64,000 nucleotides of DNA, taken from Ignavibacteriota bacterium (lineage in GTDB: Bacteria > Bacteroidota > Ignavibacteria > Palsa-1295). The notes beneath the pieces were generated by a model. It searched no databases, had not been told where the DNA came from, and saw only the letters and a program-made list of their open reading frames with translations. Below are positions 20,144 to 42,296 of the stretch, piece by piece (positions within the stretch are counted from its first letter, which is position 1; each line of letters starts with the position of its first letter). The position numbers and the translations under genes are program-made. The stretch covers positions 1,344,001 through 1,408,000 of the forward strand of contig CAWBEI010000002.1 of the NCBI GenBank assembly GCA_963787835.1, given 5' to 3'.

Positions 20144-20322
20144 ACTCGCCCATTCCTGCAGGACCCTGCAATACATGCCTTATATACTCCGTAAACTTCT
20201 ACGGATAATCGCTCATCGCATAAGATTCACCGCAAAAACTGCTGCTCACTCGCTTACGACCGTCTATCCGTTGCGGGCGATCCCCGCTCGGGACGCCTGT
20301 TAAGGGCGCCAAAAGTCCTCTA
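20144..20322 (-). ncRNA. candidate structured non-coding RNA (6S-like rod architecture)
   Basis: Own TAnnTTTG box at 20331-20338; 5'/3' ends complementary (CGCCC..CAGG..CCC / GGG..CCUG..GGGCG); long internal stem ACGGAUAG..UAAG / CUUA..UUAUCCGU; no ORF. Confidence 0.4.
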
Positions 20323-20330
20323 TCTTTATG

Positions 20331-20338
20331 CAAAGATA
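20331..20338 (-). promoter_or_regulatory. -7 promoter box (TATCTTTG) driving the ncRNA candidate
   Basis: cgTATCTTTG, identical 10-mer to the box at 20051-20060. Confidence 0.5.
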
Positions 20339-20383
20339 CGACATTCAGAAGCCGGACGCTTGAATTGTGTCTCTGGGCAAACG

Positions 20384-21556
20384 TCAGGATTCATCTCTGA
20401 TGCGAGCCATCTCATTGGTTACTGCATCAATTTCATCCAACGTATTGTAGAAATGCGGCGCGATACGAATTCCAAGCGGGGGCCGGAAATCCACCATGAA
20501 TCTGCGCCGGATAAGCTCATTGCACACTTGCTTGGCTGATAGCTTCGAATTCTTCCGGTCGCCGATGGGATCGATCGTGAGTGCTCCGCCACGCCGCTCT
20601 ACATTTCTTGGAGAATTAACAATGAATCCGAATTCATCTGAGCGTTCTATAAGGCGGTCGGTAAGTGTGATCGATTTTTGTCGAATGGCTTCCACTCCGA
20701 TCTCTGCAAAAATCTTCAAAGCCGGGCGGGCAGCATAAAGCGGAGGCACCTGGATCGTTGATGTGAGGAAACGGTGCATGCCATCGGCAAAATCAATGTT
20801 CGGCATGTGAAATTCGAACGGCTGCTTATCGCCAAGCCATCCACGAATAGCGGGCTGGAACTGCTCTTGCAAGTCGCGCCGAACATACATAAACGATGCA
20901 CCCGGCCCGCCGCATAGCCATTTGAGAACGCCGGTGGCGAGAATATCTACATTCAGATCCTTTACATCGATGGGGATAACTCCGGCAGCCTGATAGGAAT
21001 CCAGCATGACGAGCGCACCCATTTTGTGCGTGTGCTCGATAATGGGTTTTACATTCTGCAACCCTCCGGAACGAAAATACACGTGCGAAAGCGCAACGAG
21101 TTTGGTGTCTTCATCGATCGCTTCAATATACTTTTCTGTTTCCGTCCAGATTCCATCACTTTGGATAACATGCGGAACGGCACCATATTTTTTCCATCCC
21201 TGCCAGAGATAAGAGATGGTCGGGAAATGCAGATCGGAATACACGATCTTGTTTCTCTTTCCCGTAAAATCCAAACAGCTCCCAATGAGCGCAGAGCCAA
21301 TGGTGAGATTATGAATGAGTGTTATATCCCGCCCCTCCGCGCCGATAAGCGGAGCAAAGAGCGTGCTCATCTCATCGACCATCGGGAACCACTCGTTCCA
21401 GGATTCCACGCCTTCACGAGACCAAATGTCGAAATACGACCGCAATTCCTCTTCCACGCCGCGAGGTACCGCCCCAAGCGAATTTGAGATGAGATACGTG
21501 CTCGTTCCTGTGATAGGGAATTGATTTCGGTATTTATCTGCTAAATTGTCCATCAT
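20384..21556 (-). CDS. class V PLP-dependent enzyme, kynureninase-like
   Basis: YLISNSLGAVP, DSYQAAG and LKWLCGGPG (PLP lysine). Confidence 0.8.
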   Translation of the reverse strand: MMDNLADKYRNQFPITGTSTYLISNSLGAVPRGVEEELRSYFDIWSREGVESWNEWFPMVDEMSTLFAPLIGAEGRDITLIHNLTIGSALIGSCLDFTGKRNKIVYSDLHFPTISYLWQGWKKYGAVPHVIQSDGIWTETEKYIEAIDEDTKLVALSHVYFRSGGLQNVKPIIEHTHKMGALVMLDSYQAAGVIPIDVKDLNVDILATGVLKWLCGGPGASFMYVRRDLQEQFQPAIRGWLGDKQPFEFHMPNIDFADGMHRFLTSTIQVPPLYAARPALKIFAEIGVEAIRQKSITLTDRLIERSDEFGFIVNSPRNVERRGGALTIDPIGDRKNSKLSAKQVCNELIRRRFMVDFRPPLGIRIAPHFYNTLDEIDAVTNEMARIRDES

Positions 21557-21557
21557 T

Positions 21558-21636
21558 TGTAGGGACGTGCTGCGCACGTCCGATTTCGTTTTTCAAAAAT
21601 AGTACATGGGGAAGGACGTGCGCAGCACGTCCCTAC
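21558..21636. repeat. GTAG-type REP doublet; supplies the coaBC stop codon
   Basis: GTAGGGACGTGCTGCGCACGTCC ... GGACGTGCGCAGCACGTCCCTAC inverted pair. The coaBC TAG is the TAG of GTAG. Confidence 0.85.
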
Positions 21637-22961
21637 GGTTTCGCGATAATTCTATTCAATATCTCCTTCGCGCATTCTTCCTTCGACATCAGCGGCAGCG
21701 CGATTCGCTCTCCCGATCTCGTAAAGATGGTGATCTTATTTGTATCGTATCCGAATCCTGCGCCTTCATCGGCGATATTGTTGAGTACGATCATATCGAG
21801 ATCTTTCTTCGCGAGTTTTTTCGAGCATAGGCTTCAGCTTCATCGCCTTTTTCGAGCGCGAACCCAACAATAATTTGTCCCGGCCGTTTCTTTTTTGATA
21901 TTTCCGCAAGAATATCCGGCGTTTTTCGGAGCGTGAGGGTCATCGTGTCGCCGGTGCCTTTTTTCATCTTGCCCTCGCTCGTGTGCTCGGGTGCGAAATC
22001 GGCGACAGCAGCGGACATAATGATAATATCGGCATCGGGAGCTTCGATGGATACGACTTCCAGCATTTCTTCGGCGCTTTCCACATCAATGCGAATAACC
22101 CCCTCCTGCGCAAGGAGGGGGAAGGGGGTGGTTGGCCCCATCACAAGTGTTACATCCGCGCCCATGCGCTTTGCCTCGATTGCTATCGCCGCCGCCATTT
22201 TCCCGCTGGAACGATTCCCAATGAAGCGCACGGCATCGATCGGCTCATACGTCGGCCCTCCGGTAATGAGCACACGCTTTCCCTGTAGCGCCGGGCGCAT
22301 CGTCGACGATGCTTTCCTCGCGGGTTCCCATTTTGCGGGAGTGGGAACCGGCGAGGACGCCGGCGCTACAAGAGTAGAGAATTTTTGAACAATATCCACT
22401 GGCTCCGGCATTCGGCCCATCCCTGTCAATCCGCTTGCAAGTGGACCAACCACCGGTTCGATAACGATCACACCATTCCGTTTCAGCCACGCTAGATTTT
22501 CCTGCACCACTGGTTGCAGCCACATATCCTCATCCATCGCCGGAACGATAACGAGTGGTGTACCTTTTGGCAGGGAAGCCGCGGCGAGTGTAACGGCATT
22601 ATCATAAATTCCCGCCCGCAGCATCCCGATCGCCGAAGCCGAGCATGGCGCAATGAGCATGGCATCGGCGCTGCGGGCAAGATGGACATGCCAGGTCTCC
22701 GAACTCCCCCTCCTATGCAGCGAAGCGGAATAGGAGGGGGCTGGGGGGTGGTCTTTTGAAGAAAAGATACTGCCCGATAACCTCCTGCCCCGTTGCTTCC
22801 GTCATTTCTTCACGGCTTACGAACTGCTCGGCGCTTTCCGTCATCACGCACGTAACGCTCGCACCCGAGCGCGCAAGCTCGCGCGCAACCGCTGGCGCTT
22901 TTATCGCCGCGATCGAGCCGGTTACACCGAGAATAATGCGTTTGTTTTGGGGGGATGACAT
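21633..22961 (-). CDS. coaBC: bifunctional phosphopantothenoylcysteine decarboxylase/synthetase; two apparent frameshifts (about 22773 and 21816-21821)
   Basis: ILGVTGSIAAIK, WHVHLARSADAMLIAP, PAMDEDMW, ITGGPTYEPIDAVRFIGNRSSGKM, AAVADF, VGFALE. After correcting the A-run the frame continues KDLDMIVLN...GFGYDTNKITI...LMSKEECAKEILNRI*. Confidence 0.9.
22097..22133 (-). repeat. short family C palindrome inside coaBC (encodes TTPFPLLAQEGV)
   Basis: AACCACCCCCTTCCCCCTCCTTGCGCAGGAGGGGGTT; same architecture as the 22704 and 41877 elements. Confidence 0.7.
22284..22370. repeat. GTAG-type palindrome in-frame in the CoaC-CoaB linker
   Basis: TGTAGCGCCGG...CCGGCGCTACA termini, 87 bp (29 codons), with nested GCATCGTCGACGATGC and GGTTCCCA/TGGGAACC hairpins. 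Confidence 0.85.
22704..22752 (-). repeat. family C 49-bp palindrome inside the coaBC N-domain
   Basis: ACCACCCCCCAGCCCCCTCCTATTCCGCTTCGCTGCATAGGAGGGGGAG; 46/49 identical to 41877-41925. Confidence 0.9.
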
Positions 22962-23028
22962 AATGAATGGGAACGAACGAAAATAGAGTTGCTTCTCGTT
23001 TCCAGTCCATCTTTTTATTCGTCAATCT

Positions 23029-25077
23029 ATGAAACGTGTTTTATTTCTTGTAGTCTTACTTATTTCCACCAATGTTTTCGCTCAATGGCAGCATCTTCCC
23101 GGACCTTATGGTGCTTTGGCAACGAATTTTGCCGGCCTGAGCAGCGACACGAATTTTATTCTTGTAGGCACGAACTACGGTGCTTACCGCACAACGGATG
23201 GCGGGCAATCGTGGCTGCTTTCAGGCTTCGCCGATTCCAATGTGAGTCAAATTTTGTGCATCCCGTTCAATGGTCAGGATGTATTTCTTGCTTTGGTCAA
23301 TCCTGCTTTTTCCCCCGGGGGAGGAATGTTTCGATCTTTCGATTCTGGGCAAAGCTGGGAACTGCTCCCAAACGGCCATAATACTCTTTGTGCGCTTGGC
23401 GATACTCTCTTTGGAAACGGCGGCATCGAGATCGATTGGTCTTTCGATGCTGGTTCAACATGGCATGTATTTTCAATGTTGCCTTCAAATATTGGGCTTG
23501 TTCAACTATTTACAAGCGGGGATTATCTTTTGGCATACATAAAGGATACCACTTTCCTCCGATGGAATAGCGCAGTTGGCTGGGATACTTCTTTGTTCAT
23601 TGACATCATGGAGCCACAAGCTTTTGCTGCAAGCGGAAATAATGTTATCGCTGGCACTTATGGTGGAGTATCAATTTCTTCTGACAATGGGCTGGATTGG
23701 ATTCGGCCAAATAATGTTGGGATTAATTCCTTCGTGCCGGTCCAGAATTTGACTGCTAACGATTCCATAATATTATTCTCTCTCGATGATGAAATATTTC
23801 GTTCTTCTAACCAAGGGAACAGCTGGCAAATCGTATCACTTAACCACGGATTAACGCAGGTGGCATATTTAGGAACAGTCAATGGAGTCTTTTTCGCATC
23901 GGACGGAATGGGGTTTTACAAATCCAACGATGGATTGAATTGGTCATTCATAACAACAAATGGGATTCCTGAAGCAACGATATGGTCGTTGGTGGCCGTT
24001 AATGACACTTTGTATGCGGCCTTGTCGGAGGGAATTATTTATAGTACCGATCACGGCATGACATGGCCTTCATCAAACATTATTTTACAAGATAGCGGAG
24101 TCAGATACTTGACTGAGCAGAATAACGAACTTGTTCCATATGGCAACGGATTTTGGAAAAAATCTTCGAATGGCACTTGGTATAATCCCTCGGGAATCGA
24201 GATAGAGCAGCTTACATACGAGAGTGGAATTTGGTATGGCATAATTGAAGGCGATCAGGTTGGCAAAAGCACCGATAGCGGCTACTCCTGGGAAAATATT
24301 TCTGGAGGGCTTCCAACAGATAGTGGCGTTACACTAATTTGTCCTGCTTATGGCCGTCTTTTCGCTATCGAAGGCGATGGAGCGATTTACGTTTCTTATG
24401 ATTCGGGTTCCATTTGGACATTCCTGTCTTCTTATCCCAATTCCATTTATGCGGAAAACTATGCGGTTAATTCCTTTGGTTTTTTTGTTGGAACGGACGA
24501 AGGACTAATCTGGTCTTCCGATTCCTGTGTTACCTGGAGTATCGACTCTGCTCTTTGGAACATCGATATTGAAGTTCTCCAAAATTTTAACGGTGGCATT
24601 TTGGCTGGAGTATACGGAGATAACGATAGCGGAGTTAATTTCGACCTTCTTTTTACTTCAAACGGTAAAAAGTGGACATCCATTTCCCCAAAATTTTTCA
24701 ATATTTTTTCCATTGCAGCGGATGACCAATATGCATATATTGGGCTGTGGGATGATGGCATTTGGCGCACGCCCCTTTCCGATTTACCGACAAGCAGCGT
24801 ATCAGTTCAGCAGCCTTCCTCGATTTCCCTATCAATTTTTCCTAATCCATCATCATCCTCATCCACCATTTCTTTCTATCTTCCCGTGCACAGCTACATT
24901 TCTCTCAACCTCTACGATGAACTCGGCATCCTGCGTTCATCAATTTTCGAGGGTGAGATGGATGCAGGACAGCACAATATTCCTTTTGCCGATCCGAGTT
25001 TGTCAAATGGGATATACGAGGTTGTGCTTTCGACGGCAATAAATCGCTCCGTCGCCCGTCTTGTTCTGGAGAGATAA
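23029..25077 (+). CDS. secreted BNR/Asp-box beta-propeller protein with T9SS C-terminal domain
   Basis: Repeated S-x-D-x-G-x-x-W boxes, GIWRTPLSD and IFPNPS...GIYEVVL; AT-richer than its neighbours. Confidence 0.8.
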   Translation: MKRVLFLVVLLISTNVFAQWQHLPGPYGALATNFAGLSSDTNFILVGTNYGAYRTTDGGQSWLLSGFADSNVSQILCIPFNGQDVFLALVNPAFSPGGGMFRSFDSGQSWELLPNGHNTLCALGDTLFGNGGIEIDWSFDAGSTWHVFSMLPSNIGLVQLFTSGDYLLAYIKDTTFLRWNSAVGWDTSLFIDIMEPQAFAASGNNVIAGTYGGVSISSDNGLDWIRPNNVGINSFVPVQNLTANDSIILFSLDDEIFRSSNQGNSWQIVSLNHGLTQVAYLGTVNGVFFASDGMGFYKSNDGLNWSFITTNGIPEATIWSLVAVNDTLYAALSEGIIYSTDHGMTWPSSNIILQDSGVRYLTEQNNELVPYGNGFWKKSSNGTWYNPSGIEIEQLTYESGIWYGIIEGDQVGKSTDSGYSWENISGGLPTDSGVTLICPAYGRLFAIEGDGAIYVSYDSGSIWTFLSSYPNSIYAENYAVNSFGFFVGTDEGLIWSSDSCVTWSIDSALWNIDIEVLQNFNGGILAGVYGDNDSGVNFDLLFTSNGKKWTSISPKFFNIFSIAADDQYAYIGLWDDGIWRTPLSDLPTSSVSVQQPSSISLSIFPNPSSSSSTISFYLPVHSYISLNLYDELGILRSSIFEGEMDAGQHNIPFADPSLSNGIYEVVLSTAINRSVARLVLER

Positions 25078-41858: not shown

Positions 41859-42296
41859 ATGGCTGATACTAAGAATACCACCCCCCAGCCCCCTCCTGTT
41901 CCGCTCCGCTCCATAGGAGGGGGAGCTTTATTACGCAGCTATTCGCGCCCGCGCAAGAGCGGCGCTCCGGCGTGGTGGTTGCAGCGCGTGACGGGGCTTG
42001 CGCTTGTGGTGCTGACCGTCGGGCATTATATTCTGATGCACTATAATCCCGTCAGCGGGCATGATTATGGCGAGACGGCCTCGCGGCTCGTATCGCCGTG
42101 GTTCAAGGGAATTTATCTTGGCTTTATCACGATCGGAATGTACCACGGTTTGCAGGGCATTTGGAATATCGTTCGCGATTACAAGTTGAAGCCAGCCGTC
42201 GGCCTCACCATTTTTGGAGTGATCTTTATCGCGGGTGTCATTTTTGTCGCAGTGGGATGGAATACCATTCTCACCTTCGATCCGTTGAAGCCTTGA
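41859..42296 (+). CDS. sdhD: succinate dehydrogenase hydrophobic anchor subunit
   Basis: WWLQRVTG, GHY and YHGLQGIWNIVRDY; ATG directly after the sdhC TAA. Confidence 0.85.
   Translation: MADTKNTTPQPPPVPLRSIGGGALLRSYSRPRKSGAPAWWLQRVTGLALVVLTVGHYILMHYNPVSGHDYGETASRLVSPWFKGIYLGFITIGMYHGLQGIWNIVRDYKLKPAVGLTIFGVIFIAGVIFVAVGWNTILTFDPLKP
41877..41925 (+). repeat. family C 49-bp palindrome translated in the SdhD N-terminus
   Basis: ACCACCCCCCAGCCCCCTCCTGTTCCGCTCCGCTCCATAGGAGGGGGAG, encoding TTPQPPPVPLRSIGGG. Confidence 0.9.

Follow-up and report, generated by a model that had tools for sequence, protein, structure and literature searches.

The coaBC gene in a 64,000-nucleotide stretch of an Ignavibacteriota genome (the stretch is called the window, and the genome that holds it G000) carries four likely mobile hairpin repeats of three families. 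Three of them lie in frame and one supplies the stop codon, and they are likely translated in an enzyme that is itself likely functional. The probability of this reading as a whole, judged from sequence comparisons, is about 0.8. It is directly supported by the repeats themselves, by their copy numbers, by the fact that they lie in frame in congeners whose coaBC is intact, and by the presence of different families at the same loops; the same pattern is found in tsaD, nusB, and other genes. Since related species hold other repeats at the same spots, the repeats are likely translated and rewriting tolerant loops. Selection would remove arriving copies unless they preserve the reading frame and land in tolerant loops, and the elements seen today would be the surviving set. 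The elements are named E1 to E4 (Table 1), and the loci of E1, E2, and E3 are referred to as sites 1, 2, and 3.

Table 1. Features of the coaBC region and a second family A copy, in positions of the window.
Feature	Position	Strand	Remarks
coaBC (CoaC then CoaB)	21633..22961	-	Single copy in G000; three frames as assembled
First frameshift (G-run, one surplus base)	22773..22775	-	Assembly error; surplus base absent from short-read contigs
Second frameshift (A-run, one base short)	21816..21821	-	Frame change relative to 13 relative proteins; probably an assembly error
E1, family A (BoxC/triplex-type)	22704..22752	-	CoaC loop; peptide HPPAPSYSASLHRRG
E2, family B GTAG REPIN	22284..22370	-	CoaC-CoaB linker; peptide VAPASSPVPTPAKWEPARKASSTMRPALQ
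Nested 18-bp palindrome, family D	22297..22314	-	Within E2, in frame, six codons; dispersed family in G000
E3, family A	22097..22133	-	Loop that follows the MGP-ending CoaB strand; peptide TTPFPLLAQEGV
E4, family C GTAG REPIN	21558..21636	-	Perfect 23-bp arms; its TAG at 21633-21635 terminates coaBC
Second family A copy	41877..41925	+	Intergenic

An earlier note on this DNA had described three translated palindromic insertions in coaBC and a fourth providing its stop codon; its coordinates for the four elements, with the two motif contexts, the peptides of three elements, and the TAG, agree with what is found here, and so does the elements' palindromic and repetitive character. Measured against 200 shuffles each, the folding z-scores were -2.2 for E1, -7.0 for E2, -2.5 for E3, and -9.9 for E4, and blastn (E ≤ 0.01, self included) retrieved 27, 23, 8, and 32 loci in G000, respectively. 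A profile search of this 3.57-Mb genome gave 50 units of family A at 43 loci, 34 of family B at 18, and 38 of family C at 28. The mention of several repeat families also stands, with three of them in coaBC, except that E1 and E3 are not separate families but members of one. The 3′ end of E1 lies five residues ahead of the invariant histidine of the WHVHL motif, and its loop includes a 12-bp sub-palindrome (22717-22728). An inverted REP pair occurs at 15 of the 18 merged family B loci, and E2 folds end to end; family C combines a GTAG tag with an inverted doublet. E2 is a composite of a REPIN and the nested 18-bp palindrome, which is present in G006 and matched by a clean 18-bp gap in G002 and G009. 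Rfam searched over 20300-23400 returned only three chance hairpin matches, far under the gathering scores. Beyond E4, a kynureninase-like aminotransferase gene (Pfam; 20384-21556) begins at the far end of the element; it is also found 3′ of coaBC in several congeners.

All these positions differ among relatives. Site 1, from IF to WHVHL, measures 23 residues here, 18-60 in congeners, and 7-15 beyond the genus. The E1 peptide is also found in the intact gene of G005, with 48 of 49 DNA positions identical. Other family A variants occupy the site in G003, G009, G010, and G013 (in a different frame in G003), an unrelated GTAG REP fills it in G001, G006, and the metagenome sequences L117 and L121, B-like remnants are seen in G011 and G012, and heptamer runs in G002 and G014. 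These last (L028 and L019) are tandem heptamers in frame, giving HPLPSTPYPLP-like peptides. The site 2 linker has 35 residues here and 14-15 in 11 of 12 class-level outgroups. The family B REPIN is common to G002, G006, and G009, a related REPIN is present in G005, G012, and G014, a second GTAG REP in G001, G010, L117, and L121, and family A in G013. Family-level relatives have linkers of 23-31 residues with no recognised repeat, so the length of site 2 varies regardless of the elements. Several congeners lack any element at site 2 or site 3. At the 3′ end of the gene, E4 is common to G005 and G009, the stop is a TAG from other GTAG repeats in G002 and L120 and a TGA from another family in G013 and G014, and L117 has no element. 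The metagenome sequences in the CoaBC tree were L117-L123 alone, out of 80 loci, and L118, a duplicate of G005, was dropped from the counts. It had been expected that alignment with relatives would reveal the inserts as indels at loops; the sites are indeed variable in length, but E3 is a replacement and not a plain insertion. The broader proposal, that several repeat families insert into tolerant loops of this enzyme, fits the data well: the repeats lie in frame in a single-copy housekeeping enzyme, and intact congener genes carry repeats there.

The frames of the assembled gene raise another explanation, namely that coaBC is a pseudogene in this strain, in which repeats accumulated once selection was relaxed. 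Matches to TIGR00521 are spread over three frames (the best Foldseek match is 6TGV). Reading from the ATG at 22961, the frame ends at a TAG within E1 (22713-22715); the E1-E3 peptides lie in the middle frame, and the third is closed by the TAG of E4. Two breaks in 1.3 kb are a high number, given that a test of approximately 57 kb of coding sequence against proteins of relatives found three others. However, contigs of two of the four runs examined (X2 and X3) span the first break and lack the surplus G, all other letters being identical, and the read check of the frame proposed earlier thus restores the gene at this point. The runs that contain the stretch are soil metagenomes. Their short-read contigs also bear out the whole of E1, the greater part of E3, and E4 at its TAG end; they extend to neither E2 nor the A-run break. 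No second coaB or coaC over the cut-off was found in G000 by profile search, which goes against the case of a pseudogene with a functional coaBC elsewhere; the one candidate for another copy was a 21-bit flavoprotein match, of a kind found in relatives too. Compared with five relatives, pN/pS was 0.16-0.43 across three coaBC segments (0.16-0.21 in the segment 3′ of the A-run), and the window gene forms the shortest end branch of the 25-sequence tree. Because there is no second coaBC and all segments are under purifying selection, both frameshifts are probably assembly errors, of the long-read homopolymer kind, the read support concerning the first of them. Moreover, each element is shared with congeners whose coaBC is one open frame, so the elements predate any break. 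Decay of the gene is, on these grounds, very improbable, and coaBC is likely a functional enzyme. In the alignments, the CoaC motifs across this lineage read PAMDEDMW and LASGLTGMG; model decarboxylases have an Asn and the catalytic Cys at those motifs.

E3 appears, from comparison with relatives, to be a repeat-derived segment that displaced native residues and is now conserved as protein. Its 13 residues occupy the alignment columns of 9 unrelated residues in relatives, for a net lengthening by 3-4 residues. It is present in 9 of 19 congener-level sequences, and since most of the others have the 9 unrelated residues, native codons were lost at this site. The nine E3 sequences have identical length and frame, with F, P, and G invariant (FP..G). 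The pN/pS ratio was 0.45 for E3, 0.43 for the adjoining 12 native codons, and 0.17 for the core, in a weak test based on 12 codons and related sequences. This value, together with the open frames of congeners, indirectly suggests that the E1-E3 peptides are translated. In a tree built without the three sites, the nine sequences are not one clade (AU p=0.004, at least four changes), which rules out that E3 was inherited from one origin along the CoaBC tree. Excision cannot bring back lost codons, so the scatter suggests that congeners exchanged short segments or that replacement happened repeatedly. For E3 and most family A sites, the comparison with relatives contradicts a clean insertion with duplication of the target; arrival would often accompany or precede the loss of native codons.

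In four of the nine sequences the E3 hairpin is weaker, going from about -11 to -5 kcal/mol, while the peptide is kept; old copies such as E3 would be retained as ordinary protein while the hairpin decays. This bears on the possibility that the hairpins are maintained for an RNA or DNA function of their own, such as interdomain translational pausing, mRNA stability, or regulation of CoA synthesis. Many congeners do have hairpins at the linker and at the stop, and the near-identity of E1 in G000 and G005 stands beside a pS of 0.5-0.6 elsewhere in coaBC, although recent insertion or conversion from active copies also explains that near-identity. Family, orientation, frame, and length vary by species, site 2 or 3 is empty in several congeners, the E3 peptide has outlived a strong hairpin, and the host genes described below share no common function. 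A maintained function of the hairpins is thus quite improbable, and repeats surviving as translated loops remain the preferred reading.

The sites were placed on the fold by sequence alignment to 6TGV and 5INT and by Foldseek. AlphaFold models the full-length G005 protein with low-confidence loops at site 1 (residues 75-86) and at the linker (208-214), and the middle frame of the window gene with such a loop at the linker (138-158). E3 is modelled with pLDDT 87-95 and includes a short five-residue helix; it is predicted to be ordered and not the passenger of a floppy loop. The histidine after E1 (WHVHL) is invariant in 50 of 50 aligned proteins, and we take it to be the active-site His of the decarboxylase. 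These are monomer models, which are silent on contacts in a dodecamer, and, weighing against a tolerant linker, that of the dodecameric M. smegmatis CoaBC “tightly interacts with both” domains in the part of the structural report used here (PMC7794376).

A scan of all coding sequences for these repeats, also proposed earlier, indicates that coaBC is not special: it is one of about 60 element-bearing genes in G000. Among 2,794 genes called with an own hexamer model, family A lies within called genes at 29 of 43 loci, family B at 7 of 18, and family C at 8 of 28, compared with 29 of the 352 loci that belong to 13 further hairpin families (hand-picked as hairpin-like from the G000 repeat list) and with 82% of random positions. 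Under a stricter test demanding open, coding-like flanks, the counts were 21/43, 5/18, and 3/28, and 1,061 of 2,000 random 50-mers passed. Decayed family A copies in G000 genes are missed by the profile (L260 compared with C4:347646-348650, and L254 with C2:1469268-1470230), so the intragenic count of this family is a lower bound. Intragenic family A copies use all six frames. The success of this family within genes is probably due to a unit of 12-13 codons, with at most one stop-bearing frame per strand, and to Pro/Gly-rich peptides. The elements are spread over a total of 63 called genes or gene pieces, two of which belong to coaBC. The hosts include XerC, Ppx (twice), SuhB, TsaD, PcrA, EgtB, HutI, RarA, AccC, GatA, a UbiE/MenG-family methyltransferase, NusB, a 2-oxoacid dehydrogenase E1, MetH, PheS, FtsK, and HutG, with no common function among them. 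Family C gives a TAG stop to four other genes.

The repeat content of G000 is wider than these three families, with about 990 dispersed repeat regions of dozens of families. Another GTAG family, with the core CAAACTAAAGTTTGCG, lies within genes at 10 of 29 loci. Palindromes of 12-22 bp, often multiples of three in length, are nested in larger repeats of several families (22297-22314 and 22717-22728 in the window; C2:1543527, C2:1799227, and C4:215699 in G000), and they presumably resemble the small dispersed repeats of cyanobacteria.

coaBC nevertheless tops the 63 genes, with three internal sites plus the stop, and it could be a sequence-specific target, in which mobilising enzymes recognise fixed sites and insert repeatedly. 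The scatter of E3, with the same length and frame in nine sequences that are not one clade, agrees with such repeated insertion, but it also fits a single origin followed by short-segment exchange between congeners. Unrelated families share loops, family A enters site 1 in two frames and with unrelated flanks, and the same recolonisation takes place in other genes. One TsaD loop is occupied in different congeners by a GTAG REPIN or by family A, the latter in either orientation, and the copy at L060 is an inverted dimer in this loop. One NusB loop is recolonised among congeners in the same manner, and a single loop of NusB at L059:466-1386 contains four family A units, with approximately 50 extra residues. 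Elements also nest within earlier elements, so old hairpins may themselves be the targets. A dedicated attraction to coaBC is therefore improbable, and chance arrival followed by selection in tolerant loops is preferred.

The family A motif is present in 14 of 14 congeners (3-67 copies), with at most 4 copies in 16 other genomes and none for the reversed-pattern control. In G009, family A lies in frame at 16 of 40 loci, of which 10 are unrecognisable in the G000 orthologue and 6 are shared; the 40 regions represent 42 of 52 exact-match rows, the remainder being four DUF559 flanks, the coaBC copy, two contig-edge rows, and the last three. Eight of the unshared sites hold a single unit; there the protein has changed in length by -1 to +11 residues on balance, in every case less than the 12 codons of the unit. 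The species are 69-93% identical at these sites, so later trimming and replacement at arrival are indistinguishable.

Part of this picture has precedents. The earlier note considered in-frame palindromes rarely reported outside Rickettsia, which does not hold: the portions used here of Di Nocera et al. 2013 (PMC3733652) list GTAG and CGTC REPs within ORFs of numerous species, with cases such as O. terrae uvrA in which a gene has received two insertions, and state that GTAG termini often give a TAG stop. GTAG dimers within ORFs encode 20-30 amino acids there, and E2 and E4 fit this description. In the same portions, GTAG repeats are assigned to Proteobacteria, Cyanobacteria, Chloroflexi, and PVC, without this lineage; triplex-type repeats are not covered, and use of a same site is given only for Xanthomonas recB. 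Terms for coaBC are absent from four supplement files of that report. In-frame REPs and REP-supplied TAG stops are already published, and the stop-codon part of the present case is ordinary. The Rickettsia palindromic elements (RPEs) are the other close likeness. According to the parts of two reviews used here (PMC10969869, PMC3184786), which also treat other in-frame repeats, RPEs are in-frame palindromes in unrelated housekeeping genes, compatible with the fold, and about half of their copies are intragenic. The elements described here are likewise in frame in unrelated conserved genes and missing from orthologues. RPEs are approximately 105-150 bp long, end in CGTC, belong to an intracellular parasite, and have no known cognate transposase (same parts of PMC10969869 and PMC3184786), whereas the present units measure 37-87 bp, come from several families, and occur in a soil bacterium whose genome has many candidate mobiliser cassettes. 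Membership in the RPEs, considered for the present elements, was rejected on size and on the GTAG or triplex-type ends, compared with the values in the reviews.

What this case adds is a mostly intragenic triplex-type family, previously described only between genes, the recolonisation of loops by unrelated families across a genus, and a conserved repeat-derived replacement (E3). Repeated recolonisation of the same loops was not found in print. The creation of peptides from repeats, known from a handful of cases, is thereby extended to an entire free-living genus, in whose members a single gene shows several stages: E1 as a recent arrival, E2 with nesting, and E3 as a domesticated replacement. 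For CoaBC, TsaD, NusB, and other proteins, the recolonised loops are a map, drawn by nature, of the sites that tolerate change.

Regarding mobility, the GTAG families resemble the REPIN-RAYT systems, in which, in the portions used of PMC3116915 and PMC3337134, an inverted REP doublet forms a hairpin and a cognate RAYT is accompanied by the same REPs. In G002 (C1:1619996), G006 (C9:104227), and G009 (C38:5868), a Y1 transposase has family B REPs on either side, so E2 is a REPIN. Each of the nine Y1 transposase loci of G000 is framed by its own different repeat, none of them family B or C, and no RAYT flanked by family C was found at 9-10 G000 loci or at 30 loci of five congeners, in genomes that are incomplete. 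RAYT (HUH) transposases may have spread E2 and E4. Published REPINs are extragenic in the portions used of Bertels and Rainey 2011 (PMC3116915), unlike family B, with the intragenic share given above.

Family A is of the BoxC/triplex type, class II, by layout, and the triplex itself is predicted. The portions used of Holder et al. 2015 (PMC4666352) define class II as a 9-nt C-rich stem, a loop, a 9-nt G-rich stem, a 3-nt loop, and a 9-nt G-rich third strand. Family A has this layout in common with BoxC/PIT/TMECO, in single or inverted tandem copies, and 34 of its 50 units, E1 and E3 included, have at least 9 triads with at most one mismatch, in a count made without a shuffled control. It is not TMECO in the strict sense: the stem is CCCCCTCCT, not CCCTCNCCC, the first loop of E1 has at least 13 nt as opposed to 3-6 nt, and the second loop of E3 has 2 nt. 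TMECO is also described in those portions as always intergenic, with no mobility gene nearby (PMC4666352), whereas family A lies inside called genes at most of its loci. Searches that covered mainly open-access literature listed no publication on BoxC-type repeats inside genes, on their occurrence in Kapabacteria, or on a DUF559-BoxC pairing.

In E. coli K-12, TMECO adjoins the DUF559 gene ycjD, which has BoxC-type hairpins on the 3′ side only, while family A brackets a DUF559 gene in G000 as inverted dimers on both sides. DUF559 is presumably a Vsr-like nuclease. Among 30 DUF559 loci of this bacterial class (31 less the weak partial L111), such hairpins lie on both sides of the gene in 21 and on one side or both in 28, and the rest of the flanks contains few of them. 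This adjacency suggests that a DUF559 cassette flanked by family A may have spread E1 and E3. A more far-reaching proposal, tentative and rather unlikely as it stands, is that BoxC/triplex-type repeats are non-autonomous cargo of a non-HUH DUF559 nuclease system that would write units of 36-49 bp while removing native bases, and that in this genus would enter coding DNA nearly as readily as elsewhere. It would be a standing mutator that swaps loops, those of essential enzymes included, for peptides later domesticated, as in E3. Thanks to the intragenic copies there are dozens of pairs of a filled and an empty site in which the ancestral state can be read, and these make the movement of BoxC/triplex repeats and the role of DUF559 testable by comparison and in vitro.

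Two DUF559 genes of G000, L047 (C2:1483145-1483848) and L046 (C5:324220-324540), are each bracketed on either side by inverted dimers of their own triplex-type variant, that of L047 being the E1 family. DUF559 domains also occur in open frames of 438-1,056 amino acids (G002 C1:560207, G009 C9:58384, G008 C61:66323, G022 C23:17651 and C23:159111, G027 C1:362963, and G029 C49:51455), possibly as whole cassettes in frame within host genes.
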